In this document: piece after piece, positions 1-47,771 of the stretch
Layout: every line of letters starts with the position of its first letter
How positions within the stretch are numbered: position 1 is the first letter of the stretch
Assembly: GCA_044345845.1 (NCBI GenBank)
Contig: JBIJAH010000007.1
Span: 40,414 to 104,413, forward strand
Direction of reading: 5' to 3'
Origin: Roseomonas sp.
GTDB taxonomy: Bacteria; Pseudomonadota; Alphaproteobacteria; Acetobacterales; Acetobacteraceae
DNA length: 64,000 bases
The notes under the pieces: generated by a model
Told to the model about the DNA's origin: nothing
What the model saw: the letters and a program-made list of their open reading frames with translations, nothing else
The model's database searches: none
Position numbers and translations under genes: made by a program

Positions 1-71
1 ATGAATGGGTGGCCAAGGCGGGTGAAGAAGGCAAGCGCCTGATGGACGCCTATCGGGCGGCCATTGCGTGA
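1..71 (+). CDS. dctP: 3' end of TRAP transporter substrate-binding protein (DctP), truncated by window start
   Basis: Frame from nt 3 reads EWVAKAGEEGKRLMDAYRAAIA* (TGA 69-71), a typical TRAP SBP C-terminus, and it lies directly upstream of dctQ/dctM. Confidence 0.6.
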   Translation, partial: EWVAKAGEEGKRLMDAYRAAIA

Positions 72-126
72 GATTTTGGCGGGCGGGTCCTCCCCGCCCG
101 TTTTCTATCCGTTGAAGGTGGGGCTG

Positions 127-657
127 ATGCGCAAGGCACTTGATTCGCTTTACCTGCTGGGGGGCGTGCTTGGCGGCATCGCCTTGGCCGCTATCGCCGC
201 GATCATTATCGCGCAGGTCGTGGGGCGGCAATTCGGCATCACTGTATTGGGCGCTGATGACCTAACTGCCTTTTCGGTTGCTGCTTCTGCGACCTTGCCG
301 CTTGCTTATGCTTTTCGCCACGGCGCGCATATTCGGGTGGACCTGATCATTGGCCGGCTTAAGGGTTCCAGCCGCTTTATCATGGAAAGCGTGGCGCTGA
401 TCCTGACCACCGGGCTTGCGCTATTCTTTGCCTATTCCATGCTTGATCTCGCTTTGGACAGTTTCGAGTTTGAGGATGTGGCGCAAGGTTCGGTGGCCTG
501 GAAGCTTTGGGTCCCGCAGGCGCTTTGCGCTTTCGGGGCCGCGCTTTTCGCGCTTTGTCTGCTGGATGATCTGGCCGCGCATCTGAGTGGCGGCACACCT
601 TCCTATCGCAAGGCTGCTGAGATGAGTGCGCTTGATCGCGCGGGGGAGGAACTCTGA
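127..657 (+). CDS. dctQ: TRAP transporter small permease
   Basis: Four hydrophobic helices and the HIRVDL motif; the stop overlaps the dctM start (TGATG). ATG at 127 (MRKALDS) is preferred over the ORF-track start at 64. Confidence 0.88.
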   Translation: MRKALDSLYLLGGVLGGIALAAIAAIIIAQVVGRQFGITVLGADDLTAFSVAASATLPLAYAFRHGAHIRVDLIIGRLKGSSRFIMESVALILTTGLALFFAYSMLDLALDSFEFEDVAQGSVAWKLWVPQALCAFGAALFALCLLDDLAAHLSGGTPSYRKAAEMSALDRAGEEL

Positions 658-1988
658 TGGAACTCGCGCAAACCGAAGCCGGGATTTTGCTGCTTGGCTT
701 GTTGTTCCTGTTTCTTGGGCTTGGCGTATGGATTGGGCTTGGCCTGATGCTGGTTGGGCTTTGCGGCGTGATTCTGCTGCCCATGCTGATGCCTTCCATG
801 CCGAGTTTTCCGGCGGAAAAGGTGATGGGCACGGCGATATGGCAATCGCTTGCGTCCTGGACCTTGGCCGCGCTGCCGCTGTTTATTTGGATGGGTGAAA
901 TCCTGTTCCGCACAAGGCTTTCTGAGGATATGTTCCGCGGCCTGGCACCCTGGGTGCAGCGCCTGCCTGGGCGCCTCATGCATGTGAATGTCATTGGTTG
1001 TGGGATTTTCGCGGCGGTTTCGGGTTCTTCCGCGGCAACGGCCGCGACCATCGGCAAGATGTCACTGCCGGCCTTGACGCAACGCGGTTATCATTTGCCG
1101 ATGGCGGTGGGCAGCCTGGCTGGCGCCGGTACGCTCGGCCTTTTGATCCCGCCTTCCATTGTCATGATCGTCTATGGCGTCGCGGCTGAAGTTTCCATTG
1201 TGCGGCTGTTCATCGCTGGTGTCCTTCCGGGCATCATGCTGATGTTGCTTTTCAGCGGTTACATCATGGTCTGGTCCATGATGAACCCTAACCTTACGCC
1301 GCCGCGTGATCCTTCCATTCCGCTGTCACGCAAATTGAAGGAAAGCGGTCAGCTTATTCCGGTGGTGCTGCTGATCATGTTCGTGATGGGCAGCATCTAT
1401 TTCGGTTGGGCGACGGCGACGGAAGCCGCGGTTTTTGGTGTGGTGGGCGCGCTGGCGCTTTCCGCCTGGGGCCGAACTCTGACGTGGAAAAGCTTCATTG
1501 ATAGCCTGATGGGCGCCGTGCGGCTTTCCTGCATGATCAATCTGATCCTGGCGGGGGCAGCGTTCTTGACGCAGGCCATGGCCTATTCCGGCATTCCTGC
1601 CGCCATGGCGGCCTGGGTGGGCGCGCAGGGTTTCAGCCCCTATATGATCATTGCCTGCCTGACCATCATCTATCTGGTGCTGGGTTGCTTCATTGATGGC
1701 ATCAGCATGATCGTACTCACGGTATCCGTCGTGCTGCCGATCATCCAGGGCGCTGGATTTGATCTGGTATGGTTTGGCATTTTCATCGTGTTGGTGGTTG
1801 AAATGGCGCAGATAACGCCGCCGGTTGGCTTCAATCTATTCGTATTGCAAGGCCTGACCAATATGGGCATTTTCCAGGTGGCGCGTTACACCTTGCCCTT
1901 CTTTTTCATGATGGTGGTGGCAGTCGCGATTGTCACAATCTTCCCAGGCGTGGTTACCTGGTTACCGACGACCATGCTCTCAAGCTGA
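657..1988 (+). CDS. dctM: TRAP transporter large permease
   Basis: 443 aa, highly hydrophobic, with motifs FAAVSGSSAAT, GTLGLLIPPS and ITPPVGFNLFV. Confidence 0.95.
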   Translation: MELAQTEAGILLLGLLFLFLGLGVWIGLGLMLVGLCGVILLPMLMPSMPSFPAEKVMGTAIWQSLASWTLAALPLFIWMGEILFRTRLSEDMFRGLAPWVQRLPGRLMHVNVIGCGIFAAVSGSSAATAATIGKMSLPALTQRGYHLPMAVGSLAGAGTLGLLIPPSIVMIVYGVAAEVSIVRLFIAGVLPGIMLMLLFSGYIMVWSMMNPNLTPPRDPSIPLSRKLKESGQLIPVVLLIMFVMGSIYFGWATATEAAVFGVVGALALSAWGRTLTWKSFIDSLMGAVRLSCMINLILAGAAFLTQAMAYSGIPAAMAAWVGAQGFSPYMIIACLTIIYLVLGCFIDGISMIVLTVSVVLPIIQGAGFDLVWFGIFIVLVVEMAQITPPVGFNLFVLQGLTNMGIFQVARYTLPFFFMMVVAVAIVTIFPGVVTWLPTTMLSS

Positions 1989-2396
1989 TCAGGCCGGGCT
2001 TGGCCAATCCAGCCTTTCAAAGCGCTGTACTTCCAGCAAATAGCCGGCGGGGTCGTGGAAGAAGAAATGTGTCACGCGATAGGCTTCGGAATATTCTACC
2101 TGTTCCGGAACCTTCACCCCGCGTGATTTCAGCCTGGCGTGCCAGCCTTCCACATCCGGATCAACGAAAGTGAAGACAACGCCGCCTTGCACGCGCGGGT
2201 TGTCTGAAGCGCGCGGCGCACGTGCACGGCAGACGCCAAGGAAGCCGCGTTCACCCGGCGCGGTGGCATAGATGCGGCATGTGCCCTGATCCTGCACAAG
2301 CGTAAGGCCCAGCTTGTTTTCATAGAAATCCCAAGAAGCGGCTGGGTCTTCCGCATAAAGGAAGGTGATCTGTTGGGCGAAATGCGCGGGTTCCAT
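1989..2396 (-). CDS. VOC/glyoxalase family protein
   Basis: 135 aa with ITFLY...SWDFYENKLGL and FFFHDPAGYLLEV, the beta-alpha-beta-beta-beta VOC signatures. Confidence 0.85.
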   Translation of the reverse strand: MEPAHFAQQITFLYAEDPAASWDFYENKLGLTLVQDQGTCRIYATAPGERGFLGVCRARAPRASDNPRVQGGVVFTFVDPDVEGWHARLKSRGVKVPEQVEYSEAYRVTHFFFHDPAGYLLEVQRFERLDWPSPA

Positions 2397-2546: not shown

Positions 2547-3026
2547 ATGAGCGATCTGGCCAATAAGATTACCGGGCACATTCCGGTGAAGGAACCGCAA
2601 TGGCTGAAGGAATTCAAGGCCTTCATCATGCGCGGCAATGTGATTGACCTGGCGGTTGGTGTCGTGATTGGCGCGGCCTTTACGTCCATCGTGACCTCCA
2701 TGGTGGAGGATATCTTCAACCCGATTATCGGCCTGCTTCTGGGCGGGATGGATTTTTCCAACCTTTTTGTTGTGATCACCGGTGAACGCAAAGCTACACT
2801 GGCAGCGACACGCGAAGGCGGCGCGGCGGTGCTGGCGGTTGGCAAGTTCATCAATGCCATCATCAAATTCGTCATTGTCGGTTTTGCGGTGTTTTGGATG
2901 GTGAAGGTCTTGAGCAAGCTGCAAGCTTCAAAGGCGGTGGAAAAAGCCTCAAGCCCGCCGCCGCCAACACCAACTGAAACGCTGCTCACGGAAATTCGTG
3001 ACGAACTCAAGGCGCGCAAAGCCTAG
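2547..3026 (+). CDS. mscL: Large-conductance mechanosensitive channel
   Basis: LKEFKAFIMRGNVIDLAVGVVIGAAF N-terminus, second TM helix, and LLTEIRDEL C-terminal helix. Confidence 0.97.
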   Translation: MSDLANKITGHIPVKEPQWLKEFKAFIMRGNVIDLAVGVVIGAAFTSIVTSMVEDIFNPIIGLLLGGMDFSNLFVVITGERKATLAATREGGAAVLAVGKFINAIIKFVIVGFAVFWMVKVLSKLQASKAVEKASSPPPPTPTETLLTEIRDELKARKA

Positions 3027-3109: not shown

Positions 3110-4780
3110 CTAACGCCGCGCTGGCTGGGCCGGTGCGGCGGGCCGTATGACGGCAGTAAGGTCCGCCATGGCTTGTTCCCGGCTGGGCGGATTGCCATTG
3201 CTGACCGCCACCATATGCCGCGCCGCGATGCGCGCGAGTTCCGGCAGATATTGCACATTTTGTGCCTGCAATTCCTGCTGCACCACATTGCCGGCATCAG
3301 CAATGCGTAGCCGATCTGCGCTGCGGCCAACCGAAAGCACGGTGCGCAGATAGCCTGCGGCCAATTCCTGAGCGCGGGCGGGTTGGCCTTCTGCCTGGCT
3401 GCGAAGTGCGGCTTCAATACGCGCCATGGTGGTGGTGATTTGCTGCGTGCGTTCCTGTTGCCGGCGGAGCGCCGCTTGCACTTCTGCCTGCGTCGCGGCG
3501 GCAATACGGCCCTGATCTTCGGCCAAGGTGCGTTGCGCCTGAACGGTTTCCGCTTGCACCCGGGCAAAAGCGCCGAGCAATTCGCCAAAACCCTCAGCCA
3601 ATAGGATTTGCCGACCAATCTGCGCCGCGGCAGCGATTTGGCTTTGGAGCGCCTGCATTTCCTGATCATTGCGTTCGCGCTGTGCGGTACGCAGCGCCGC
3701 GCCGACGCGATCAATCCCCTGGCGTAGCGCTGGGTCTGGCGTGTCATTCTTCAGGACTTCCAGAAGCCGCGCGGGGTCTTCACTGGCGCTGCCGCGTGAT
3801 TGCGCTTCAGCCTCAAACGCGGCGCGCAATTGTGCCGGGCGCTGGTCGCTGCTCGTGGCCACCAAGGCAAGTACCGGGCGGAAGCCCAGGCTGCGCAGCC
3901 GGAGCGCTTCGCCATTGCGATCAAGTGGCGGCAATTCAACGCGCAGGCTGGAGCGGATTTGGTCTTCTGGCGTCAAGAAATCACCGCCGCGCGCCACCAT
4001 ACCGCCCGCCTGACCATGCGGCCGGCCCACGCGATTGAGCCGATAGGGTTCCAGCACCCATTCCGCGACATTGCCGAGCATATCGAAAATCCCAAGCGGA
4101 TTTGGTTCCAACATGCCGATGGGGCGCACCCGCCCGCCCGAGGATCGCGTGCCCTGAAACCAGACATAACGCTGCATGCCCTCAGACATTGGAAAAACGC
4201 GTGCGCCGAAATCCGCTTCGGCAACCGCCGTTCCACCGCGCACGGCAAATTCCCATTCATCTTCGGTGGGCAGGCGGACAAAGGCGCGCGCATCATCACG
4301 CATGGGCAAGGCATCGCGGGTATTGCGTGCAAGCCAGGTGGAATAGCGGAGCGTGAAGCCCACTGCCTCATGCCAAGCGATATCCGCTTGGGGCAGGCGC
4401 CCGGCTGCCGCGGGCGTGGGGCAGGTTTCGCTGGTCACAGCGCTGTATTGATCCCGCGTCACTTCATACTTGCCGATGTAATAGCGCGGTGGTGCGGCGG
4501 CATCGGCGCCGCGAAATGGGCCGGCAATGAAGCCTTGACGCAGAAACTCGCTGTAATTGGTTTCCGCATCCGCCTGGCCCAACATGGCGGGCCGATCAGC
4601 CAGCAGCCCTTGGCCCAAGGGGGTTGGCACCGGGCGAAACACCATGGCGCCACCGCAGGGCATGGGCAGGATCAGATCATCAGCAAGCGGCTTCGGGTTC
4701 CAGAATTCCGCAGCCCATCTTTCTTGCGCGTTCACCGCTGGCGCGAACAGGATCATGGCAGCAAGAAACAGCTTACGCAT
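3110..4780 (-). CDS. FGE-sulfatase (SUMF1/EgtB/PvdO) domain protein, TagR-like, with signal peptide and helical C-terminal half
   Basis: Signal peptide MRKLFLAAMILFAPAVNA; FWNPKPLADDLILPMPCGG N-terminus; motifs IGKYEVT, RLPTEDEWEFAVRGG, NPLGIFDMLGNVAEW and GFR. ATG at 4780 overlaps the permease stop. Confidence 0.85.
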   Translation of the reverse strand: MRKLFLAAMILFAPAVNAQERWAAEFWNPKPLADDLILPMPCGGAMVFRPVPTPLGQGLLADRPAMLGQADAETNYSEFLRQGFIAGPFRGADAAAPPRYYIGKYEVTRDQYSAVTSETCPTPAAAGRLPQADIAWHEAVGFTLRYSTWLARNTRDALPMRDDARAFVRLPTEDEWEFAVRGGTAVAEADFGARVFPMSEGMQRYVWFQGTRSSGGRVRPIGMLEPNPLGIFDMLGNVAEWVLEPYRLNRVGRPHGQAGGMVARGGDFLTPEDQIRSSLRVELPPLDRNGEALRLRSLGFRPVLALVATSSDQRPAQLRAAFEAEAQSRGSASEDPARLLEVLKNDTPDPALRQGIDRVGAALRTAQRERNDQEMQALQSQIAAAAQIGRQILLAEGFGELLGAFARVQAETVQAQRTLAEDQGRIAAATQAEVQAALRRQQERTQQITTTMARIEAALRSQAEGQPARAQELAAGYLRTVLSVGRSADRLRIADAGNVVQQELQAQNVQYLPELARIAARHMVAVSNGNPPSREQAMADLTAVIRPAAPAQPARR

Positions 4781-5996
4781 CACGAAGCCCCTCCGCAGGT
4801 TCAATCCGGGCGGCGCGATACCCGGCAAAAGCCGCAGATAATGCCGCGCCCAAAAGGCTCACCAGAAATGCGAGCAAAAGATGCTGCGCTTCAATGACAC
4901 AAATGGCCCGCGCGCCGGCGGCATTGGCACCTGCAAGTGGTAGGCGGTTCACCAGACCCGCCACTGTCAACGCCAACAAGCTTGCGAGCGCCGCCCCCGC
5001 GCCCGCGATGATCAGCGCCTGAATCAACGGAAACACCACCAGATCGCGGCGGGACAGCCCGATCAGGCGCAACAGCGACAGATCGCGTTGCTTGCGTTCC
5101 ACATTGGCATAGAGCCCAACCCCAAGGGAGACGAGATACCCAACCCCACCCAACCCGGCGAGCAAGGCAAAAAGCAGCGTGAGGCTGCGATCAAGGCTGA
5201 GCAAGCCTTCTACCTGTTCCGCAAGCGTTTCCACTTCCACCCCATCGCACCGCAGGTCATGGTCAATGCGCGTTACATCTTCCAGGCGCCGCGCATGGGC
5301 GCGAAAACCGGCATAGATGCGCGTGGGATCATCCGAGATATCGGCGGGCGTTGCGGTGGCGGGCATCGCGCCATCGGTGAAGCGATCAACCAGCAGCAGA
5401 GTCTTGAGGTCCACAAAAACGCCATCGCGGCCAAAAGCGCTTGGCGGTGCGATGGCCGCGATGGTGACGGGAAAATTCAGCACTTCCCGCGCGCTGGTAT
5501 CACCGCGCAGCGCGCGCAGTGTCACCCGCATGCCGGGTTGCAAATCCAACCGTGCGGCGAAGGAAGCGCTTGGGATGATTTGGTTGGGCGCAATGTTCGG
5601 CAGACCATGCAGCAGTGGATCACCCGCGGCGGTGGCTAGCAATTCTGCGCGCAGCACGGTGCCAGGGCGTGCGGGGTTTTCGAAACGCGCTTCGGTATTC
5701 AGGCTGCGCGTGCGCGGAATGACAAAGGCGATATCGGGCCGCGCGGCCAGGCGTGCCAGAAACGCCGTATCGAAGTTGCGGTTGGCGGCATTCACCACCA
5801 TGCGGCTGCGCGGGTTATCAATCAGCTCCGCACGCAGCCCATCAATCACACCCTGCTTCAGACCAAACAGCACAATCAGCGGTGCCAGTACCGCCGCCAG
5901 ACCAATCAGCGAACAAAGGGCGAGCGTGCGTTCATGCAAAAGATCACGCAGCGAAAGCCCAGCAAGCAATCCGCCATGAGAGGTTTTCCCACTCAT
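4773..5996 (-). CDS. ABC transporter permease, FtsX/MacB-like (TagS-like)
   Basis: One N-terminal TM, a large periplasmic loop and three C-terminal TMs, with ERKQRDLSLLRLIGLSR. ATGA overlap with the ATPase gene. Confidence 0.88.
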   Translation of the reverse strand: MSGKTSHGGLLAGLSLRDLLHERTLALCSLIGLAAVLAPLIVLFGLKQGVIDGLRAELIDNPRSRMVVNAANRNFDTAFLARLAARPDIAFVIPRTRSLNTEARFENPARPGTVLRAELLATAAGDPLLHGLPNIAPNQIIPSASFAARLDLQPGMRVTLRALRGDTSAREVLNFPVTIAAIAPPSAFGRDGVFVDLKTLLLVDRFTDGAMPATATPADISDDPTRIYAGFRAHARRLEDVTRIDHDLRCDGVEVETLAEQVEGLLSLDRSLTLLFALLAGLGGVGYLVSLGVGLYANVERKQRDLSLLRLIGLSRRDLVVFPLIQALIIAGAGAALASLLALTVAGLVNRLPLAGANAAGARAICVIEAQHLLLAFLVSLLGAALSAAFAGYRAARIEPAEGLRDA

Positions 5997-6745
5997 GCCG
6001 GCGCCTGCACCCGATTCAGCCAGGAACGACCAGCGCCCGCATCCCCCGCTTCCGTACGGATCGGCAGAATAGCGAAGCCATGGCGCGCGGCGCGGTCCGG
6101 GTCATGCGTTGCCAGGATCAGCGCCGTATCCTGTTCGCGTGCCTGTTCAATCAGCAGCGCCAGTATTGTGTCAGCCAAGGCCGGGTGCACGCTGGCCGTG
6201 GGTTCATCCGCCAGCAGGATTTCCGGGCGATGCGCCAGGGCGCGGGCAATTGCCACACGTTGCCTTTGCCCAACGGAAAGACTCGCCGGCATTCTCTCGA
6301 GCAAAGACGCGATCTCAAGCCGCGCCGCCAAGGCTTCGATATGCGCGGGATCGGGCCGCCCCAGCACCGCCTGGCTGAGCGCGATATTGCGCCTGACAGA
6401 CAGGAACGGCAGCAATCCACCCGTTTGAAGAATATAGCCGAAATGTGCGGCGCGAATGGCCGTCAGGCTATTGTCATCCCCCGCGCGCCAAACAGCGCCA
6501 AGGTCTATCGCCTTGCCTGCGCGTGGCGTCAGCAGAAACTGGCGAGCGCTTGATGGTCGGCGCGCCAAGGCCAGCAGATCAAGCAGTGTTGATTTGCCGG
6601 AGCCAGAAGGCCCGACCAGCGCCAAAGCCTCACCGCGCGTGATGCTGAATTCCTCAATGACAAGCTCAAACCCCAGCGCGCCACCCGGCGCCTGATGGCG
6701 GATGATGACGTCTTGCAGCAGCAGGGTTGGCGCGGATTGGCTCAT
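5993..6745 (-). CDS. ABC transporter ATP-binding protein (TagT/LolD-like)
   Basis: Walker A GPSGSGKST, signature LSVGQRQRVAIARAL, Walker B ILLADEP, and H-loop ATHD. Confidence 0.93.
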   Translation of the reverse strand: MSQSAPTLLLQDVIIRHQAPGGALGFELVIEEFSITRGEALALVGPSGSGKSTLLDLLALARRPSSARQFLLTPRAGKAIDLGAVWRAGDDNSLTAIRAAHFGYILQTGGLLPFLSVRRNIALSQAVLGRPDPAHIEALAARLEIASLLERMPASLSVGQRQRVAIARALAHRPEILLADEPTASVHPALADTILALLIEQAREQDTALILATHDPDRAARHGFAILPIRTEAGDAGAGRSWLNRVQAPA

Positions 6746-6753
6746 GCGCGCCC

Positions 6754-8703
6754 TCAGGGCAGCGCATCAATGGGCACGGGATACATCGCCTCACCAGGAT
6801 TGCGCCCGCCATCGAAACTGACCCAGAGCGATGGCTGGCGATTGAATTCCTCATAAAGGCGCAATTTCGCTTCCAGCGCATTGACGATTTCGGTGCGCCG
6901 GCCGGCGCCCATGCTGTTCCATTCTTCCTGCGTGAATTCCATGATCTGACTCTGATAGGGCAGGTCTTGCAGGAATTCGCCAAAGGCGCCGCCCAGGCGC
7001 TGGAATTCCGCCATGCGCCGAGGATCACGCGCCGCCGCGGCTGCCGCACCACGCACACGTTCAAAAAAAGTTTCCGGTGAAAGCCGCGCCGCCGCCTGGG
7101 CCTGGATGATGCTGCGCAGCGTAGTCGCCAGATCGGAAAGCTGATTGCGCGTCAGCAACACGCGCACATCCAAGGGGCGCCTTTCTGGCCTGGGTTCCGC
7201 CGGGTTCAGTTCTTGATCCAGAACGAAGCTCCGCACCACATCAGGCGCCGCTTGCTGCGTTGCGCGCCCCAGATAGGAAAGCCGCATGGCGGTGCCGACA
7301 ATCTCTGCCTGTTCTGCGATGCGCCGTTCAGTTGCGCTTTGTGGTGCCCTGATGCCAGCGATGGGGCGCCCAACCGCAGCGGCAACCTGTGCGAGCAGCG
7401 CATCCGTCAGCGCATCAACGGTTTGGCCGAATTGGCCCAGATTGCCCTCATTGATTGGGTAGTAAAGTTCCCCCGCCGCGCCGAAGCGCGTAAGTTCGCG
7501 GTATTGCCTTTCAGCGCGTGCGTGGTTGGTGCGCCCTTCGGGTGTTTTCAGATGAATGGCGTAGATCGCAACCTGTTTCGCTTCGGAATGCGCCAATTGG
7601 CGCATTTCTTCCGGGCCCATCTGGGTTTGTCCACGTGGGTCCTTGGCATCCCGCGCGCCGGCATCTGTCACCAGAATAACGAAGCGCCCACCATATTGCT
7701 GCCAGGGCACTTCATCCAAGGCGAGCTTGATGCCGGCGAGTGAATCCTCATCAAAGCCCTCATTGCTCTCACGCGCCTCGGTCGCTTCCGCAAGGCGTGG
7801 CAGGATTGCATCCGAAGCCTCAGCCAAATCCGGCAGGGAGACCATGCGCGTGACATATTCAAGCCTGGGATTACCACCCAAATGGTCGCGGAAGGCGACC
7901 ATGCCAAAGCGGAAATTGTCTCGCACGGCGGTATCGCGAATGCGATCCACCACGCGCTTCAGCGCTTCACGCGTACGTTCAATATAGGGACCCATGCTGA
8001 TGGTGGTATCCACCACAAACACCACCGCACCCCGATAGTTGCGGAGCGCATCGGGATCAGCGGGTGGGGAAGGGGCTTGCTGAGCGGGGGCGGAAACCAC
8101 TTCCAGCAAACGCGCTTCATGCGCGCTTTCATTTTCCACGCGCTGCGCAGAAAGAATGGGCAGCAGGTAGAATTGCCTTGTGATATCAATGAAGTTTTCG
8201 GGTTCCAGCGCAATCACCGGCCCTTCGGTGTTTGCCGTTGCGGCTTCGCGCAAACGCGTAGCTTCTGCCGCGCCGCCGCGTGTATTCAACCAAAGGGCAC
8301 GCGGTGTTTCGGCGTCTCGGAAAAACATGGCGCGTTCACGGCCAGCGGGATTGTTGAAGGCCAGCACCATGGTCTGCTTCCAATCCATGGTGCGTTCGGC
8401 GCGCACCCAGCCTTGCGTGCGGCCATCCTGCGCTGCGCCAATTTCAAGCCAACCATCGGCGCCGCTGCCTTGGCGCGCATAGACATAGAAAACACCAAAG
8501 CCGGGCGTTGGCTGGGAAGGTGCATTCGCATCCGGGCGTTCCGCCAAGCGCGCGCCGGGGCGCAGGATCACGCGTTGAAACAGCGTGGCGCGCCCTTCCA
8601 TCAGCAGCGGTTGCCGCGCGGCTTGTTGCGCCATGCCTTGCCCTGCCGGGAAGGCGCACAAGGTGCCAAGCACAAGAACCCAAAATGCACGACGCAACAT
8701 CAT
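6754..8703 (-). CDS. Secreted vWA-domain protein resembling the periplasmic region of T6SS kinase PpkA, with no kinase domain
   Basis: Signal peptide; PLLMEGRATLFQRV...WKQTMVLAF N-domain; MIDAS-like VVFVVDTTISM and VILVTDAG; C-terminus LPYQSQI...KLRLYE...YPVPIDALP, which I recognise as PpkA-ectodomain-like. Confidence 0.8.
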   Translation of the reverse strand: MMLRRAFWVLVLGTLCAFPAGQGMAQQAARQPLLMEGRATLFQRVILRPGARLAERPDANAPSQPTPGFGVFYVYARQGSGADGWLEIGAAQDGRTQGWVRAERTMDWKQTMVLAFNNPAGRERAMFFRDAETPRALWLNTRGGAAEATRLREAATANTEGPVIALEPENFIDITRQFYLLPILSAQRVENESAHEARLLEVVSAPAQQAPSPPADPDALRNYRGAVVFVVDTTISMGPYIERTREALKRVVDRIRDTAVRDNFRFGMVAFRDHLGGNPRLEYVTRMVSLPDLAEASDAILPRLAEATEARESNEGFDEDSLAGIKLALDEVPWQQYGGRFVILVTDAGARDAKDPRGQTQMGPEEMRQLAHSEAKQVAIYAIHLKTPEGRTNHARAERQYRELTRFGAAGELYYPINEGNLGQFGQTVDALTDALLAQVAAAVGRPIAGIRAPQSATERRIAEQAEIVGTAMRLSYLGRATQQAAPDVVRSFVLDQELNPAEPRPERRPLDVRVLLTRNQLSDLATTLRSIIQAQAAARLSPETFFERVRGAAAAAARDPRRMAEFQRLGGAFGEFLQDLPYQSQIMEFTQEEWNSMGAGRRTEIVNALEAKLRLYEEFNRQPSLWVSFDGGRNPGEAMYPVPIDALP

Positions 8704-24072: not shown

Positions 24073-24828
24073 TCAGGAAGGAATGCCGCCGACAGCGCTG
24101 CGCTTGATGGCGACGCCGGTTGCAAGGCTGTGCCGCGCCTTCACCCTTTCCTCCTGCGATGAAATGGCGATCTCAATTTCAATAAGGACCTGTTCGATGC
24201 GTTCAATATCGGCGTTGTCGTCGCGCACCTGTGTTACAAGATCAGCCGCATAATGCAGCCCCAGGGTCAGGCAGCCGGTATGAAGCCCCTTAATGCGCCC
24301 GACCAGATCATGCACTTCCTCAACACTCTTGGACCGCCTGAGGTCACGCGCGAATGCCGCGCATTGGCCCCGCAAGGAATAGAGGTAGGTTAAAAGTTGA
24401 TCCGGCGCGATATTCAGGCGGTTCAGCGTGGCTGATGGCGGTTCGGCAATCCTCTCCCATGCGGTATTCAGGATTTTTTGCAGTGAACCGCGAGCTTCCC
24501 GCGCGTGAAATGGCTTGACAATATAGTGGCTGATCCCGAGCGTGACCGCCTGCTTCACCGTATCAAGGTCAGCGGCGGCGGTAACCAGCACGAAGGGAAT
24601 TTCCTTGAAGCGTGGCGAAGAACGCACACGTCGTAACAGGTCTATGCCCGACAGGCGCGGCATCTGGACATCACAGCAGCAGATCATGGGGGCGGGTCCC
24701 ATTTCCATCTGCTCCCACGCGTCCTGGCCATCTACCGCTTCAACGACCTTCAATTCGATAAAGCTTCGCATGAGATCGGCCAGCGCCATGCGCGATACGA
24801 TATCATCATCAACTACCAAGGCCCTCAT
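24073..24828 (-). CDS. Response regulator: receiver domain plus a helical C-terminal domain
   Basis: ALVVDDD, phospho-acceptor CDVQMP, LVTA and YIVKPF; ATGA overlap with the kinase gene. Confidence 0.88.
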   Translation of the reverse strand: MRALVVDDDIVSRMALADLMRSFIELKVVEAVDGQDAWEQMEMGPAPMICCCDVQMPRLSGIDLLRRVRSSPRFKEIPFVLVTAAADLDTVKQAVTLGISHYIVKPFHAREARGSLQKILNTAWERIAEPPSATLNRLNIAPDQLLTYLYSLRGQCAAFARDLRRSKSVEEVHDLVGRIKGLHTGCLTLGLHYAADLVTQVRDDNADIERIEQVLIEIEIAISSQEERVKARHSLATGVAIKRSAVGGIPS

Positions 24829-27221
24829 GGCGAAATTCCTTTCATGATATCGTTGAGCATATTGCGAAGCTCAGGCATTTTTTCAGTGATGAGCGCCCAG
24901 TCCCGTTGGTCTGCGGCCTTTTCCAAAAGCGTGCTGGAATTCTGGAGCGCGCCGCCGGGCCAGATGTAGCCAGCACTGCCTTTCAAACCATGAAAGATGT
25001 TCGCCATGGTCGCGAAATCCTGCCTTTCATAGGCTGCCTCAAGTTCAGTCAACCGTGCCTCAAGGCCCTCGCGGAAGGCGGCACGTAAGCGCGTATGAAG
25101 ATCGCTTGTACGATCTTCCTCATCCCGTGCGTGGGCGCTGATTGCTGGCTGTGTCTGCGTATCCGGCAGCGCCACGGGCGTGCCAAAGATCGCATCAAGC
25201 TCCCCTTCGGCGTGATGAAACAGGGGCAGAAGGGGGGCGTTTTCAGCAAGCCGTTTTTCGATGGCGTGCGCGATGCTCTGATGCAGCAGCGATTCATCAA
25301 TGGGTTTGACCAGAAAATCATCCGCACCGCATGACAGATAGAATTTACGGCTTTCATCATCGGCATTGGCGGTCAGCATGATGATGCGGATATTCGGATT
25401 TGGGATGTAAAAATCGCCCTCACCCTCTGCGCGAATGAGGCGAATGGCGGTCGCCCCATCCATTTCCGGCATGCGCCCATCCATGAGAATAAGGTCGTAA
25501 TGTCGTTGCGGCAGAGCTTCCAGTGCCTTTCGGCCATTATCCACAAAATCAACGCGGTGGCCCATTTCCTCCAATAGGCCCTGGATGATGATCTGGTTGG
25601 GCAGAAAATCCTCGGCGCAAAGAATTTGCAATTGATGTGAATGCGGCTGCAAGCGGGTAAGCAGGGCGTTTGCAGGCGTGGTGCCTGGCCTGAAGGGAAT
25701 GACAAAGCTGAAGCAGCTGCCTTCATTGATTTTGCTGGTGAGCCCGATGTCGCCTTCCATCAGCTCAACAAGCTGCCTGCAGATGGCAAGGCCAAGCCCC
25801 GTGCCACCGAAGCGCCTGGTTGTTGACGTATCAGCCTGTGCAAATTTCTGGAAAAGACGGACCTGTGCTTCTGGTGGAATGCCAATTCCCGTATCCTGGA
25901 CGTCAAACCGGATGCGGCTTCTGCCTTCATCCAAGGCTTGCTCCGAAATGGTCAAGGCGACGCTACCCTGATCCGTAAATTTGATGCCATTACCAATCAG
26001 GTTGATCAAAATTTGCTTGAGTCGCGCGGGGTCCCCCAACAGAACATCGGGAACCGCATCATCAATCGCCACCTCAAGCGCGATATTCTTCACCTCAGCG
26101 CGTTCGGCAAGAATTCCAACGCTGTCCGAAATGAGGTGCCGGAGGGAGAAATCAACCTCCTCAAGAATTAGTTTTCCGGCTTCGATTTTGGAAAAATCCA
26201 AGATATCATTCAGTAGATCCAGCAGGAATTCCGCATTAGTTTGCGCCATATCCAGGTTTTGGCGCGTTTTTTCGGTAAGCGCTGTATCACGCAAGGCCAG
26301 TCGTTGCATGCCGATCACGGCCGAGAGAGGTGTACGGATTTCATGGCTGACCATTGCAAGGAACTCGCTTTTGGCGCGGCTTGCATTGTCGGCGGCGTCC
26401 TTGGCGGAAAGGGTCTGTACAAGACCACTCCACACATCCTGCTCAAGTTTTTTTCGTTCCGAAATATCTTCGATTATGCAAAGGCACGCATTTTCCGTGT
26501 TTTCCAGAAATACACTGGCTATATGCACCCGCAGCCATATGACGGAGCCATCATTACTTTCAAATTCCACTTCGACAATGCTGTGGCCTTCTTCGGAGAT
26601 CTCGCCCCACATCGCCTCCATATAACAATCATAGGCTTGTTTGCCGGACAGGATGCGCGATACCGGCTCACCGGTTAGATTCTCGATAGAAGTGGCCAGA
26701 ATTTCAGATGCCTTCGCATTTACCTTGGCGATGACGCCCGCGTTAACCATCACCAACCCTAATGGGACAGATTCAAAATACGTGGCGTCTTTCTGGATGA
26801 GTGTGACGAAGGTGTCGAAATGGGTTCTGGCTGAGACACGCCGAATGCCCTCACTACTGGCGCTGATGTCTTCAAGCCTGACCATGACGACACGCCCTGG
26901 CTGCGAGCAAGCCGCTTCAATACGCAGAAGAAGCAGCCGTAATCCCCTGGGCGTGGGACGAAGCAATTCAATCGCCTGTGAACCACCGGAATTGAGAACA
27001 TCCTCGAGCGTGATGGCAAGCTTGTTGCGACTCTGTTTTTCAAAAAGCTGTGTCAGGGCCAATTGAGTCGTCGGAAGCTTCGCTTCATCCAGCCAAAGGA
27101 GTTCCTTTGCCGCCGGAGAGATGGAAAGACTGTCATTATCCGCATCCCAGGCCAACCAGGCCGCAGCATCCGGTATTGTGGCGTCCGTTGGATCAGGACA
27201 TGCGAGCATTTTGATCGGCAT
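24825..27221 (-). CDS. Soluble hybrid histidine kinase (PAS-PAS-HisKA-HATPase-REC-Hpt)
   Basis: SHEIRTP H-box, NLIGNGIKF, DTGIGI, GTGLGL, LMDGRMP receiver and FHGLKGSAG Hpt; no TM segment is evident. Confidence 0.93.
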   Translation of the reverse strand: MPIKMLACPDPTDATIPDAAAWLAWDADNDSLSISPAAKELLWLDEAKLPTTQLALTQLFEKQSRNKLAITLEDVLNSGGSQAIELLRPTPRGLRLLLLRIEAACSQPGRVVMVRLEDISASSEGIRRVSARTHFDTFVTLIQKDATYFESVPLGLVMVNAGVIAKVNAKASEILATSIENLTGEPVSRILSGKQAYDCYMEAMWGEISEEGHSIVEVEFESNDGSVIWLRVHIASVFLENTENACLCIIEDISERKKLEQDVWSGLVQTLSAKDAADNASRAKSEFLAMVSHEIRTPLSAVIGMQRLALRDTALTEKTRQNLDMAQTNAEFLLDLLNDILDFSKIEAGKLILEEVDFSLRHLISDSVGILAERAEVKNIALEVAIDDAVPDVLLGDPARLKQILINLIGNGIKFTDQGSVALTISEQALDEGRSRIRFDVQDTGIGIPPEAQVRLFQKFAQADTSTTRRFGGTGLGLAICRQLVELMEGDIGLTSKINEGSCFSFVIPFRPGTTPANALLTRLQPHSHQLQILCAEDFLPNQIIIQGLLEEMGHRVDFVDNGRKALEALPQRHYDLILMDGRMPEMDGATAIRLIRAEGEGDFYIPNPNIRIIMLTANADDESRKFYLSCGADDFLVKPIDESLLHQSIAHAIEKRLAENAPLLPLFHHAEGELDAIFGTPVALPDTQTQPAISAHARDEEDRTSDLHTRLRAAFREGLEARLTELEAAYERQDFATMANIFHGLKGSAGYIWPGGALQNSSTLLEKAADQRDWALITEKMPELRNMLNDIMKGISP

Positions 27222-37077: not shown

Positions 37078-38196
37078 ATGATGAAATTCGATCAAAACCC
37101 ATCGCCCTGCGCTGCGTCCGGGGTTCCAGCCGGCTGGCTTTGCCAAGGCGCCTTGCGGGTGATCATGGCCTTGCTGCTGTGCTTGACGGTTCCCCCCCAG
37201 GCCCTGGCCCAGGCCGAAGCACCCATTCGCATGAGGATCGTCGGCGGGCTTGCCGATGTCAGCCAGTATTTGCGCTATGAGGAGCCATTCTGGCGCGAGC
37301 GTATTTCACAGGCGACCAATGGACGCATAGTCGCAGAAATCGTCCCCTTCGACCGTAGTGGCATTCGCGGCCAGGAAATGCTGTCTCTGATCCGGCTTGG
37401 GGTTGTGTCCTTTGGTACGGCCCTGCTTGCGGTCGTCAGCACCGAAGAACCTGAGTTCAACGCCATAGACCTGCCTGCGGTCAATCCAGATATCGCCGCC
37501 TTGCGTCGCTCGGTTGCGTCATTCCGCGGGCATCTGACAGAAACGCTGCGCGAACGTTATGAGGTGGAGCTTCTTGGTGTTTACGTCTATCCGGCCCAAG
37601 TGGTTTTTTGTCGGCGGCCTTTTTCCAAGCTTGCTGATCTTTCTGGGCGGCGGATCAGGACATCTTCGGTCGGCCAATCGGAAATGTTTACCGCCCTTGG
37701 CGCGACGCCTGTTGTCATTCCTTTTGCGGATATCGTCTCCGCGCTCAGATCAGGTGTGGTCGAATGCGCGGTGACCGGGACGCTGTCCGGCAATGATATT
37801 GGCCTGCATGAAGTGACAAGCCATGTGCATAGCATGGCGATCACCTGGGGACTTTCCATCTTTGGCGCGAATTTGGGAACCTGGAACGCTTTGCCGCAAT
37901 GGGCGCGCGATACTATCCGCACTGAAGTGACGAAGCTTGAGGCAGATATTTGGGGGGCAGCTGATCGCGAAACGGGTGAAGGGCTTGCCTGTAATTCTGG
38001 TCTGCCAAGCTGCCAGAATGGTCGCCGCGGCAATATGGTGGTGGTTCCTGTCTCCGACGCGGATGAACAGCGGCGGCGGCAATTATTGACCGATAACGTA
38101 CTACCTGGCTGGGTTCGACGTTGTGGAGCAGACTGCGTGGATGCCTGGAACAAGACCCTTGCCCCCGTGCTGGGCATAAGGGCACGACCGGATTAG
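37078..38196 (+). CDS. TRAP-type (DctP-like) substrate-binding protein with no adjacent permeases
   Basis: EEPFW, DLSGRRIR, PFADIVSALRSGVVECAVTG; a signal-like stretch begins near 37165, so the true start may be later. Confidence 0.85.
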   Translation: MMKFDQNPSPCAASGVPAGWLCQGALRVIMALLLCLTVPPQALAQAEAPIRMRIVGGLADVSQYLRYEEPFWRERISQATNGRIVAEIVPFDRSGIRGQEMLSLIRLGVVSFGTALLAVVSTEEPEFNAIDLPAVNPDIAALRRSVASFRGHLTETLRERYEVELLGVYVYPAQVVFCRRPFSKLADLSGRRIRTSSVGQSEMFTALGATPVVIPFADIVSALRSGVVECAVTGTLSGNDIGLHEVTSHVHSMAITWGLSIFGANLGTWNALPQWARDTIRTEVTKLEADIWGAADRETGEGLACNSGLPSCQNGRRGNMVVVPVSDADEQRRRQLLTDNVLPGWVRRCGADCVDAWNKTLAPVLGIRARPD

Positions 38197-38200
38197 GGCG

Positions 38201-41116
38201 ATGTTTTCGACGCGCTTCCTCCGCCATGCTGTGTTTCTTGCGGCGCTCGCGCTTATGGTGGCGCAGATTGTGGCGACCACCCTGCTGCTGAATCGTGCCA
38301 AGGAAGCGCAGATTGCGGCGGCGATTGATTCCTTGAACAAGATCGGGCGCTCTACTGAAGCGGCGATCAACCGTTCCTTTGTTCAGGTTGATGCCATGTT
38401 GGCGGGACTTCCCGCAGTGCTGGCGCCTTTTCAGCGTGATGGGCGGCTTGAAGTATCCCAGGTCAATCGGGTGCTTCGTGAGTTGAACAATCAGAACTTC
38501 ACCTATCGAGATATCTTGCTGATCGGGCCGGATGGTTTGCCGGTGGCAACAGCATTGCCTGTTTCTCGCCGCCGTCGACTGCCATTGCCAAGCGCTGCAT
38601 CCTTCGCCGAGGTTGCTGCGCGCGGCGGGAGTGTTTCCATTGGTGGGCCGGTTCTGAATGCCAATACCGGCGAATGGACGCTTTTCTTTGCCCGCAACAT
38701 CATTTTGCCGACCTTGGGCCCGGTTATGGCGGTGGCCGAAGTGCCTGTGCCCGTTGTGCAATCTATTCTCTCTGGTGCCGGTGAAAGCCTTGGCTTGCGC
38801 GTAACCCTTGAAAGGGATGACGGCACTTTACTGGCTTCGGTACCACACGATGAAACACGCATCGGCCAGAAGCTGAGCCCTACAGCAGCGGAAATGCGCA
38901 GCCCGGTGGCAGAGCAGGAGGTTAAAAGCCGATTCGGAGACGAAATGGTCTTGGTGGTTATTCGCCCAACGCTCTATCCCGCACTTGGTGTGTCGGTAAC
39001 CCTGAAGGTGGATGCCGCATTAAGCGGCTGGTACGCTGATCGCAGCCGGGCGTTTTTGGTCTCTGGCGCTCTTGGTTTGATGATTTTGCTTGTAGCTGGC
39101 GCACTGATTGTGGGCTTGCGGCAGAGGGAACGCGTTGAGGATGAACGTGCCAAAGCGCGGCGGACGCTTGAAAACGCGCTTGAGTCCATGTCCGATGGCT
39201 TTGTCATGTTTGATCCGGATGACAGGCTGATCGCGTGCAATAGCCGCTATAAGGATTTCTATACGCTTAGCGCCCCCTTCATTGTGCCGGGCGCCTTGTT
39301 TGATGACATCATGCGCGAAGGCGCTTTGCGTGGGCAATATCCGCAGGCACAAGGCGATATCGAGAAGTTCGTAGTCGCGAGCAAGGCTTTCCATCGCGGT
39401 AATCACCCCCCCATGGAACGGTTATTGCCGGATGGCCGTTGGGTGCTGATCACGGAAAGGCGTACGCCCGATGGGGGTGTGGTAGGCATCCGTACTGACA
39501 TCACACCTTTGAAGCGGGCGATGCAGGATCTGGCCGCGGCGCGTGACTCCGCCCGCACCGCAGGTGAAGCCAAAAGCCAGTTCTTGGCGCGCATGTCACA
39601 TGAACTGCGCACACCCCTTAACGGGATACTCGGATTTTCCGAACTACTGCTGGAAGATGGGCGCCTTGATCATGATCAGCATGAGAAGGTGCGGAATCTG
39701 CATGGTGCAGGCAAGCACCTGCTTGAACTTGTCAATGATCTACTCGACCTGACCAAGATTGAGTCAGGACGAATGGAGTTCGCCTCTCGCCCCTTCCTAT
39801 TGCAGGAGGTCGTTCAGAGCTGCGCATCCCTTGTTGCACCCGATGTGATGCGCAAAAAACTACAGTTCAAGTCAGATTTTGGCGAGGGACTGCCGAAAGC
39901 GTTGATAGGTGATCCAACGCGGCTGCGCCAGATTATTCTGAACCTGCTTTCCAATGCTGTGAAATTCACGCCTGATGGCGGTAGCATTTACTACAGGGTA
40001 AAGCGGAAAGACGCTGAGAGACTACGCATTGAAGTGCAGGATACTGGGCCCGGCATTTCACCCGAAAATCAGCGCCTTATCTTCCAGGATTTTGTGCAAC
40101 TCGTGTCCAATATGAAGAATGATGTCTTGGGTACGGGGCTTGGGCTTGCCATCACATCACGTCTTGTGAAGCAGATGGGCGGTGAGATCGGCTGCAAAAG
40201 TACGCCGGGTATCGGTTCCCTTTTCTGGTTTGAGATTCCAGTTTTCCTGACCGAAGTGCCGGCTACCACGGAGGCTGCACGAGAAAGCCAGGAAACCCCA
40301 CCTGCCTTTCATAGGCTTCGTGTTCTTGTTGTTGATGATGTCAAGGCAAATCGTGATGTAGCGGGCGCTCTGCTGACCATCATCGGGCATGAGGTAGGCT
40401 TTGCGGCCAATGGGGTGGAAGCGCTTGAAAAGCTTCAGGCCAGCAGCTTTGATGCTGTTCTGATGGATCTGCAGATGCCGGAAATGGATGGCTTTGCTGC
40501 GGCACGGGCCATAAGGGCAATGGCGCCCCCACTTAGCCAGGTTCCGGTTTACGCCCTGACGGCATCTGTGATGCCCGAACAAATTACTGCTGCGCGCGAA
40601 GCGGGAATGAATGGGCATATTGGCAAGCCATTGAGCAGGGAAGCGCTCATTCAGGTACTCAGCAGCCAGCAAAGCCGAGAGGGGTTTTCCGCCATCGGAG
40701 AGGAAGGCAGCCCAGCTTTGCCTGGTGCGGTAGCGAAAGAGGTCTCCTCAATTGATGTCGGTGTGCTTGAGGTGCTGAAAGACGAATTAAAGGGAGCCGC
40801 TGAGGGTGTTGTTCGGGAATTCATGATTGAAATGAAAACAATACAGGAGAATTTTGTACGGGAATTGGGGACCAATCAGCCGCGACCAGACGTGATCGCG
40901 CATGATGCGCATCGTCTGCTCGGCGCGGCACGCACACTTGGTGCGCAAGTGCTGTCAGCAGAATTGAACGCGTTTCAGAAGCTTCAGCCGCGTGAAAGTA
41001 CAGTTTTCCCCGTGGAAAATGCACATGCGCTAAGGCGTGTGATTGATGAAACCAATCTGGCCTTGGCCAACCTTGAAGCTTTTTGCCAGCGAAATTTTAT
41101 CAGTGAGAAAGTCTGA
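38201..41116 (+). CDS. Membrane hybrid histidine kinase (TM-periplasmic Cache-like-TM-PAS-HisKA-HATPase-REC-Hpt)
   Basis: Two TMs, SHELRTP, NLLSNAVKFT, DTGPGI, GTGLGL, LMDLQMP and AHRLLGAARTLGA. Confidence 0.93.
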   Translation: MFSTRFLRHAVFLAALALMVAQIVATTLLLNRAKEAQIAAAIDSLNKIGRSTEAAINRSFVQVDAMLAGLPAVLAPFQRDGRLEVSQVNRVLRELNNQNFTYRDILLIGPDGLPVATALPVSRRRRLPLPSAASFAEVAARGGSVSIGGPVLNANTGEWTLFFARNIILPTLGPVMAVAEVPVPVVQSILSGAGESLGLRVTLERDDGTLLASVPHDETRIGQKLSPTAAEMRSPVAEQEVKSRFGDEMVLVVIRPTLYPALGVSVTLKVDAALSGWYADRSRAFLVSGALGLMILLVAGALIVGLRQRERVEDERAKARRTLENALESMSDGFVMFDPDDRLIACNSRYKDFYTLSAPFIVPGALFDDIMREGALRGQYPQAQGDIEKFVVASKAFHRGNHPPMERLLPDGRWVLITERRTPDGGVVGIRTDITPLKRAMQDLAAARDSARTAGEAKSQFLARMSHELRTPLNGILGFSELLLEDGRLDHDQHEKVRNLHGAGKHLLELVNDLLDLTKIESGRMEFASRPFLLQEVVQSCASLVAPDVMRKKLQFKSDFGEGLPKALIGDPTRLRQIILNLLSNAVKFTPDGGSIYYRVKRKDAERLRIEVQDTGPGISPENQRLIFQDFVQLVSNMKNDVLGTGLGLAITSRLVKQMGGEIGCKSTPGIGSLFWFEIPVFLTEVPATTEAARESQETPPAFHRLRVLVVDDVKANRDVAGALLTIIGHEVGFAANGVEALEKLQASSFDAVLMDLQMPEMDGFAAARAIRAMAPPLSQVPVYALTASVMPEQITAAREAGMNGHIGKPLSREALIQVLSSQQSREGFSAIGEEGSPALPGAVAKEVSSIDVGVLEVLKDELKGAAEGVVREFMIEMKTIQENFVRELGTNQPRPDVIAHDAHRLLGAARTLGAQVLSAELNAFQKLQPRESTVFPVENAHALRRVIDETNLALANLEAFCQRNFISEKV

Positions 41117-47653: not shown

Positions 47654-47771
47654 CAGGTTTCTTTGCGATGTGAACATTTTGGCTCCACACCGGAGTATTG
47701 GCATTTTGAGATTTAAATTTTGAAAACAGGCGCGCCGATTTTTGCCTTGGCTTGCGTGATGTTTGTGCTTC

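Follow-up and report, generated by a model that had tools for sequence, protein, structure and literature searches.

The Roseomonas sp. contig JBIJAH010000007.1 carries, within the 64,000-nucleotide stretch analysed here (positions 40,414 to 104,413; hereafter the window), a gene at 6754..8703 whose product resembles the periplasmic region of PpkA, the kinase of the threonine-phosphorylation pathway of the Pseudomonas H1 type VI secretion system (H1-T6SS), yet has no kinase of its own. The locus raises the question of whether this gene derives from PpkA or whether PpkA derives from a protein of this kind. A sequence-only reading of the stretch had proposed that the PpkA periplasmic sensor is a module that can be detached from the kinase, and that PpkA may be a kinase fused onto it or the window gene a split derivative. 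The detachable module and the fusion are borne out, as standalone secreted proteins of ~650 aa dominate the family and two fused clades nest among them; the split derivative finds no support, as the Acetobacteraceae clade of Srf-type proteins that holds the window protein lies far from the fused clades. With a probability of roughly 0.6, the encoded von Willebrand factor A (vWA) protein is the periplasmic subunit, bearing a metal ion-dependent adhesion site (MIDAS), of an envelope-spanning module that also comprises TagR-like, TagT/TagS-like and bitopic proteins, and PpkA is a derived fusion.

A secreted homologue of the PpkA ectodomain

The gene and the predicted parts of its product are as follows.

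6754..8703 (-), vWA protein gene, 649 aa from an ATG start; homologue of the PpkA periplasmic region
8629..8703 (-), signal peptide, aa 1-25, read by eye; predicted cleavage after GMA
8038..8628 (-), family-specific beta-rich N-terminal domain, aa 26-222; from the PpkA match and the strands of an AlphaFold2 (AF2) model
7369..8037 (-), vWA domain with MIDAS, aa 223-445; from Pfam, Foldseek and invariant residues
6757..7368 (-), family-specific, mostly helical C-terminal domain, aa 446-649; ends in a conserved P-x-D-A-L-P

BLASTP aligns residues 15-649 of the window protein with residues 388-1027 of P. protegens PpkA at 36.9% identity (E=1e-124). The same comparison, made segment by segment, gives the following matches.

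N-terminal flank, 27-222, with PpkA 405-593: 39.6% identity, E=2e-39
vWA domain, 223-445, with PpkA 606-815: 39.6% identity, E=3e-49
C-terminal flank, 446-649, with PpkA 835-1027: 36.2% identity, E=8e-40

Both flanks are as similar to PpkA as the vWA domain itself, and these alignments show the vWA protein to be homologous to the Pseudomonas PpkA ectodomain across its whole mature length. The resemblance of the N- and C-terminal segments to the periplasmic part of PpkA, which the sequence-only reading had recognised, is thus confirmed and extends beyond a generic vWA match. In PpkA (also named TagE) the ~620-aa ectodomain is homologous end to end, at 36–40% identity per domain; unlike PpkA, the window protein lacks a kinase and a transmembrane (TM) anchor and has a signal peptide in place of the anchor. 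The TM helix of PpkA (residues 345-363) sits exactly at the signal-peptide position of the standalone proteins. Among the family members discussed below, P0158 is a genuine Pseudomonas PpkA, ~80% identical to that of P. chlororaphis, and P. protegens PpkA (P0369) is 71% identical to P0158.

Pfam finds no Pkinase in the 649-aa protein, and tblastn with the kinase half of PpkA (residues 1-387) returns no match in any frame of the window at E<=1, so that no frameshifted kinase lies upstream. The T6SS cluster of P. protegens runs Fha-TssJ-TssK-TssL-TssM-TagF-PppA-PpkA-TagT-TagS-TagR-TagQ. In the window, tblastn searches with PppA, Fha, TssJ/K/L/M, TagF and TagQ give no match at E<0.01, and no TagQ or Gly-zipper homologue is found. 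The earlier remarks that the vWA protein has no Hanks kinase motifs and that no kinase, pppA, fha, tagQ or tss gene accompanies it agree with these searches, which covered TssJ, TssK, TssL and TssM among the Tss proteins.

The N-terminus, MMLRRAFWVLVLGTLCAFPAGQGMA with QQ following the predicted cleavage site, reads by eye as a Sec-type signal peptide with no lipobox. Equivalent N-termini are present in standalone homologues, in keeping with the cleavable-type signal peptide described before, and in the AF2 model residues 1-28 have a predicted local distance difference test score (pLDDT) below 50. Pfam places VWA_4/VWA (PF25106 / PF00092) at residues 226-385, with scores above the gathering cut-offs. 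The MIDAS-like stretches that had been noticed are indeed present, as D232-T-T-I-S236 and T346-D347; D232-x-T234-x-S236 is encoded at 7996..8010 and D347 at 7663..7665, and D232, S236 and D347 are invariant in an alignment of 32 sequences, 12 of them PpkAs.

The AF2 model (mean pLDDT 72.6, predicted template modelling score 0.48) comprises a beta-rich N-domain, a Rossmann-type vWA domain and a helical C-domain. The strands of the N-terminal domain are predicted at pLDDT ~75–90, and motifs in this domain are conserved across 119 representatives. Confidence in the C-terminal domain is moderate to low; its last residue, P649, is invariant in 119 sequences. Foldseek matches the vWA domain of the model to integrin I-domains and VWF A-domains and finds no fold match in the PDB outside it. 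Sequence searches of the PDB with the vWA protein alone and with a 119-sequence profile find no related solved structure, and NCBIfam has no family for the vWA protein, SrfB or SrfC.

More than 100 orthologues at 88–97% identity occur in lake-water metagenomes and in metagenome-assembled genomes named Roseomonas or Acetobacteraceae, which indicates that the vWA gene is intact and under constraint. The sequencing runs that hold the sequence are all lake-water metagenome DNA, with no RNA runs among them. Several of the kinase-less 649-aa orthologues from the Joint Genome Institute (JGI), such as P0005, P0023 and P0041, bear the name 'serine/threonine-protein kinase PpkA'. The mis-annotation seems to be systematic and was probably carried over from the ectodomain match.

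The seven-gene Srf operon and its relatives

Start/stop overlaps and short gaps between genes indicate that the region from 15355 to 3110 forms one putative seven-gene operon, in which the vWA gene is fourth. The order is SrfB, SrfC, a bitopic protein with an N-domain, TM helix and Sel1-like domain, the vWA protein, an ABC ATPase, an FtsX permease and a protein like the formylglycine-generating enzyme (FGE). The six other genes are as follows.

12380..15355 (-), SrfB, 991 aa, first operon gene; full-length match to PF07520, E=4e-285
9739..12372 (-), SrfC / Virul_Fac, 877 aa from the ATG at 12372; full-length match to PF10139, E=7e-229
8700..9713 (-), bitopic transducer candidate, 337 aa; TM helix by hydropathy, with homologues upstream of the vWA gene
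5993..6745 (-), TagT-like ABC ATPase, 250 aa; Pfam ABC_tran, NCBIfam LolD/FtsE-like
4773..5996 (-), TagS-like FtsX/LolC-type permease, 407 aa; Pfam FtsX, start overlapping the ATPase stop
3110..4783 (-), TagR-like periplasmic FGE-sulfatase-fold protein, 557 aa, last operon gene; PF03781, E=4e-28

The start codon of the vWA gene and the stop codon of the gene before it overlap as ATGA, with a GGAG 11 nt upstream; 8 nt after the stop codon of the vWA gene follows the ATG of the ABC ATPase gene. Compared with P. protegens, the ATPase is 48.7% identical to TagT (E=2e-59), the permease 35.2% identical to TagS over its full length (E=4e-46) and the FGE-like protein 34.9% identical to TagR over 416 aa (E=2e-55), and the vWA/TagT/TagS/TagR block is collinear with ppkA-tagT-tagS-tagR. 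The sequence-only reading had thus identified the tagT/tagS/tagR-like neighbours, but it overlooked the SrfB/SrfC operon context. Whereas the PpkA locus includes PppA, Fha, TagF, Tss proteins and TagQ, the operon partners in the window are SrfB and SrfC; the window operon also encodes a separate bitopic protein with a Sel1-like domain, which PpkA lacks.

SrfB contains actin/HSP70-like phosphate motifs (DIGNARTCG and DIGGGTTD, by eye) and shares 40% identity with the protein annotated as SrfB on a Gluconobacter plasmid. In SrfC, a P-loop (GPSQQGKS) together with a DFPG motif, also read by eye, suggests an NTPase. PDB sequence searches with SrfB and SrfC give no meaningful match. The TagR-like protein has a signal peptide and a Q/A/E-rich C-terminal tail. 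No SrfA homologue is found in the window in searches to E<=0.01.

An exhaustive HMMER search over 1.84 billion cluster representatives (50% identity clusters) retrieves 1375 family members, 487 of them at E<=1e-30. The best 150 representatives are mostly ~650 aa long. In the few that reach ~1000 aa, residues ~25-649 of the query align in one stretch to the C-terminal ~620 aa, and an N-terminal Pkinase is evident in only two of the 150 (P0128 and P0158). In P0190, a 1041-aa protein from a JGI metagenome, an N-terminal AAA_22/ExeA-like ATPase takes the place of the kinase and is linked to the ectodomain by a TM helix at ~336; it is a third kind of cytoplasmic module on the sensor ectodomain. A further clade (P0263, P0243, P0264, P0268 and P0134) has 110–270 extra N-terminal residues with a signal-peptide-like start and no Pfam match; these residues may form an additional periplasmic domain.

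Relatives occur in at least 588 species, according to a genome scan with one genome per species and a 26-sequence alignment as query. Counts of neighbouring genes were taken from the best 80 loci, filtered by available flank. SrfB and SrfC lie upstream in 44 of the 47 loci with >=7 kb of upstream flank, and the ABC, FtsX and FGE genes lie downstream in 50 of the 57 with >=4.5 kb of downstream flank. SrfA, present in 17/47 loci, is a variable component, and a Gly-zipper/TagQ-like gene follows the FGE gene in 12 loci of gammaproteobacterial type. The order SrfB/SrfC/small bitopic/vWA/ABC/permease/SUMF1-like is annotated on a Gluconobacter albidus plasmid and likewise on a Cereibacter plasmid; Klebsiella IncF plasmids (114 records) have the same cassette order with SrfA in front. 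Gene order is conserved across Alpha- and Gammaproteobacteria. By these comparisons the window gene is best described as an ordinary, intact member of a widespread family for which an SrfB/SrfC operon is the usual home. PpkA, and not the window vWA gene, is the unusual form.

Two variants of the neighbourhood were also observed. At L001 (1558-5463) and at many Acetobacteraceae loci (for example L029, L031, L045-L047 and L051), a set of three to four conserved hypothetical genes, Ga_h1-h4, stands in front of SrfB; they occupy the position of SrfA in Gammaproteobacteria and are absent from the window and its closest Roseomonas relatives. At L003 (14821-21447), on a 2-Mb replicon of Azospirillum brasilense, a vWA homologue of 25% identity is followed by an ABC ATPase, a 621-aa FtsX protein and a 561-aa FGE-related protein. 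The Azospirillum homologue was considered as a PpkA and rejected, being a vWA/ABC/FtsX variant with no Srf, kinase or T6SS genes nearby.

The association of srf, tagRST and 'ppkA' genes outside T6SS loci is already published. In host-associated Desulfovibrio with no T6SS, srfB/srfC were described beside 'tagQ, ppkA, ligA, tagR, tagS, tagT' (PMC3608642, from 2013), and a 2026 preprint places vWA, Lol-like ABC and SUMF1 genes beside srfABC in Haemophilus and Xenorhabdus (bioRxiv 10.64898/2026.09.18.752743). Neither report remarks on a kinase-less 'PpkA' or on the bitopic protein as the kinase-bearing element. The window cassette comprises the same families in the same order as those of Haemophilus/Xenorhabdus and Desulfovibrio and is an alphaproteobacterial member of this group; it differs from them in lacking SrfA and the Gly-zipper/TagQ-like lipoprotein, and is a minimal seven-gene form.

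Split kinases and the origin of PpkA

The 337-aa protein encoded immediately upstream of the vWA gene starts with a beta-rich N-domain in the cytoplasm (~1-105) and ends in a helical, periplasmic Sel1/TPR-like C-domain (~225-337) with an invariant YDP (Y272 D273 P274); between them lies a TM helix at 162-180 (by hydropathy), flanked on each side by a Pro-rich linker. Its single-sequence AF2 model (pLDDT 47.7) is informative for the helical C-terminus only. By iterated hidden Markov model (HMM) search, almost every locus with a readable upstream open reading frame (ORF) has a homologue immediately preceding the vWA gene, and the common architecture is a ~100-aa N-domain, one TM helix and a Sel1/TPR-like C-domain with the invariant YDP.

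Of the 47 loci with enough upstream flank, those that lack SrfB and SrfC (L076, L080 and L085) are exactly the three in which a Hanks kinase/TM/Sel1 gene is present. In each, this gene is followed by a separate vWA protein with a signal peptide and then by TagT/S/R-like genes, and L085 stands back-to-back with Fha-TssJ-TssK-TssL-TssM. Two metagenome contigs, L086 (7892-9934) and L087 (7803-9836), encode a 677–680-aa kinase/N-domain/TM/Sel1 protein. Its kinase is 56% identical to the kinase domain of P. protegens PpkA, the segment after the kinase is homologous to residues 3-92 of the window 337-aa protein (E=9e-9), and the TM helix and Sel1 domain are homologous to residues 162-335. Downstream are standalone vWA, TagT, TagS and TagR genes and a true TagQ homologue (E=1e-36); upstream of the kinase protein, L086 retains SrfA, SrfB and SrfC. 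The L086 gene calls for SrfB, SrfC and TagS are fragmented, probably by sequencing frameshifts. Beyond TagQ, both contigs continue with a trypsin-like protease, an unknown gene and GrpE-DnaK.

All five of these PpkA-type loci resemble the window in having a secreted vWA protein after a bitopic protein with a Sel1-like YDP domain, followed by TagT/S/R-like proteins. They differ from it in the N-terminal Hanks kinase on the bitopic protein and, individually, in the adjoining T6SS of L085 and in the SrfA/B/C and TagQ of L086. Because the kinase of the split relatives is carried on a homologous bitopic protein, the gene at 8700..9713 is most simply interpreted as the kinase-less form of the transducer and the true counterpart of the kinase subunit, and the vWA protein appears as a separate partner in all unfused systems. 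The earlier description of the vWA protein as a kinase-less PpkA ectodomain calls for one correction: the kinase-bearing element of the split relatives corresponds to the bitopic protein and not to the vWA protein. The N-domain is detected by HMM in most, but not all, Srf loci and in L086 and L087, and is absent from the three kinase-only loci; this distribution fits a coupling to SrfB/SrfC, in what are few cases.

An ectodomain phylogeny with and without the kinase, as the sequence-only reading had called for, was obtained by neighbour joining from 593 columns for 146 family members, with 100 bootstraps and the distant Azospirillum homologue as the root. Here P0154, a standalone protein with a signal peptide, is the sister of Pseudomonas PpkA (bootstrap 100); the two belong to a clade of 19 (bootstrap 100) in which the remaining 17 proteins are all standalone. 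The split loci L086 and L087 encode P0402 and P0408, relatives of P0154, as their vWA proteins. The kinase-fused P0128 falls in a different clade (bootstrap 99), together with the split loci L085 and L080. The fused PpkA-type polypeptides thus occupy two separate clades, and in them the Sel1 domain has been lost. The window protein clusters with the Acetobacteraceae Srf-type proteins, far from both.

The kinase halves tell the same story as the ectodomains. The kinase/TM half of P0128 shares 53% identity with the split kinase of L085 and only 31% with Pseudomonas PpkA, and the L086 kinase shares ~56% identity with those of Pseudomonas and Plasticicumulans. Kinase and ectodomain halves therefore co-vary within each clade, the pattern expected if neighbouring genes fused twice independently and the Sel1 domain and signal peptide were lost. 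Since the fused forms nest at two tips, each with a kinase half closest to the split kinase of its own clade, this pattern suggests that the standalone protein is the ancestral state and that PpkA arose by fusion of two adjacent cassette genes. The split-kinase intermediates, the two independent fusions and the assignment of 8700..9713 as a kinase-less transducer are new here, and the evolutionary reading is modestly so. TagQRST-PpkA and SrfABC share one homologous periplasmic module. As this module exists in nature both split, as kinase/TM/Sel1 with a secreted vWA protein, and fused, as PpkA, it offers separable parts for work on binding and reconstitution of T6SS components.

Possible functions, and other features of the window

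In Pseudomonas, TagQRST and PpkA are needed for H1-T6SS assembly upon outer-membrane damage, TagR probably contacts the periplasmic domain of PpkA and acts on it, and kinase dimerisation is the output of the pathway (PMC11881912, PMC6082577, PMC3224232). By analogy with TagQRST-PpkA, which responds to outer-membrane damage in P. aeruginosa, the vWA, TagR-like and TagTS-like proteins of the window would report the state of the envelope. The vWA protein would dock on the periplasmic Sel1 domain of the bitopic protein; Rosetta-stone logic points to this contact, as covalent fusion would have made Sel1 dispensable, and it makes the Sel1 domain a predicted partner for the PpkA ectodomain family. 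The bitopic protein would then relay the envelope signal across the inner membrane, and the cytoplasmic output here would be something other than phosphorylation, passing from the small N-domain to SrfB (actin/HSP70-like) and SrfC (P-loop NTPase). Such a scheme suggests that the Srf cassette responds to envelope state.

Several points weigh against this scheme. The contacts between vWA and Sel1 and between the N-domain and SrfB/SrfC are read from gene order, fusions and presence or absence, with only five kinase loci (n=5). TagQ, which is essential for signalling in P. aeruginosa, is missing from the window, as is SrfA, and the input may therefore differ. Information in FtsEX-like ABC systems usually flows from the inside out, so the module could act on the periplasm instead of sensing it. 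The AF2 model, of only moderate confidence, offers no hint of what the flanks do. The phylogeny is distance-based with a single distant outgroup, and support at its deep nodes is low.

In type-VII ABC systems, ATP hydrolysis in the cytoplasm is coupled to partner proteins in the periplasm. The TagT/TagS-like pair is a member of the superfamily of the FtsEX, LolCDE and MacB mechanotransmission systems; the resemblance does not go beyond the family level, with scores well short of the curated LolC, LolD and FtsE cut-offs, and the partners, a vWA and an FGE-like protein, differ.

The main rival explanation is an export or assembly machine: a Lol/MacB-like ABC pair, powered by ATP, would extract, process or export some component of the periplasm or membrane. 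The Srf proteins or a lipoprotein are candidate cargo, as is the vWA protein, and the vWA and FGE-like proteins would serve as periplasmic adaptor and modifying enzyme. The permease and ATPase do score best against LolC/LolD/FtsE/MacB models, and type-VII ABC systems normally transmit work outward. A 'toxin processing/export' module has been proposed for SrfABC of Haemophilus and Xenorhabdus in the 2026 preprint (bioRxiv 10.64898/2026.09.18.752743), and Xenorhabdus SrfABC is reported to be cytotoxic (PMC6950479). The window SrfB and SrfC, however, have no signal peptides, and the homologous Pseudomonas set of TagT, TagS, TagR and ectodomain is the input of kinase signalling, not an exporter (PMC11881912, PMC6082577). 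Export is judged rather unlikely, and is rated below envelope signalling, because those Pseudomonas homologues signal and because Hanks kinases have repeatedly become attached to the membrane-spanning partner, which, with the one AAA ATPase, fits signal transduction better.

Two other explanations were weighed. If the gene were what remains, through splitting or decay, of the PpkA of a T6SS since lost, full-length similarity to the PpkA ectodomain and tagT/S/R-like neighbours would be expected too, but this is very improbable, given that no kinase remnant is found in any frame of the window, that the ORF is intact, translationally coupled, conserved at 88–97% in >100 orthologues and equipped with its own signal peptide, and that it clusters with Srf-linked standalone proteins far from the fused clades, in a family where standalone forms vastly outnumber fused ones. 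Even less probable is a generic periplasmic vWA adhesin or metal-binding protein, functionally unrelated to PpkA, with the ABC and Srf genes as chance neighbours. In favour of this reading, the vWA domain is all that Pfam and Foldseek detect, but the matches of both flanks to PpkA at E ~1e-39 and the synteny conserved across Alpha- and Gammaproteobacteria and plasmids refute it.

A wider history can be tentatively proposed, although we consider it doubtful. The Srf cassette would be the original home of the TagRST/vWA/Sel1 module, serving widespread sensing of and response to envelope damage, with SrfB and SrfC as cytoplasmic NTPase effectors and not as secreted 'toxins', and the P. aeruginosa H1-T6SS would owe its tit-for-tat input to the capture of such a cassette. 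The capture could have proceeded by the bitopic transducer gaining a Hanks kinase, followed by fusion of the kinase/TM part to the vWA gene.

The remainder of the window has ordinary chromosomal content. An M23 peptidase gene and XseA lie upstream of SrfB. A promoter and terminator scan is uninformative, with two promoter-like sites, fewer than the shuffle mean of 3.6, and 31 terminator-like sites against 18.6 (standard deviation 4.9). PADLOC finds no defence-system match except generic ABC ATPase similarity. Sequence reading places an MscL-like mechanosensitive channel gene at 2547..3026 (+), convergent with the end of the operon, and beyond it a VOC/glyoxalase-like ORF at 1989..2396 (-) and TRAP transporter permease genes at 64..1988 (+). 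Hybrid histidine kinases of the PAS-HisKA-HATPase-REC type, one with an Hpt domain, are encoded at 24073..27221 (-) and 37078..41116 (+); they lie in two stretches of lower GC (0.54–0.57 versus ~0.61), and genes for a response regulator and a binding protein of the DctP type are next to them. The ORF at 44918..47704 (-) encodes a protein of 928 aa, rich in RTX calcium-binding nonapeptide repeats (HemolysinCabind, E=6e-76).

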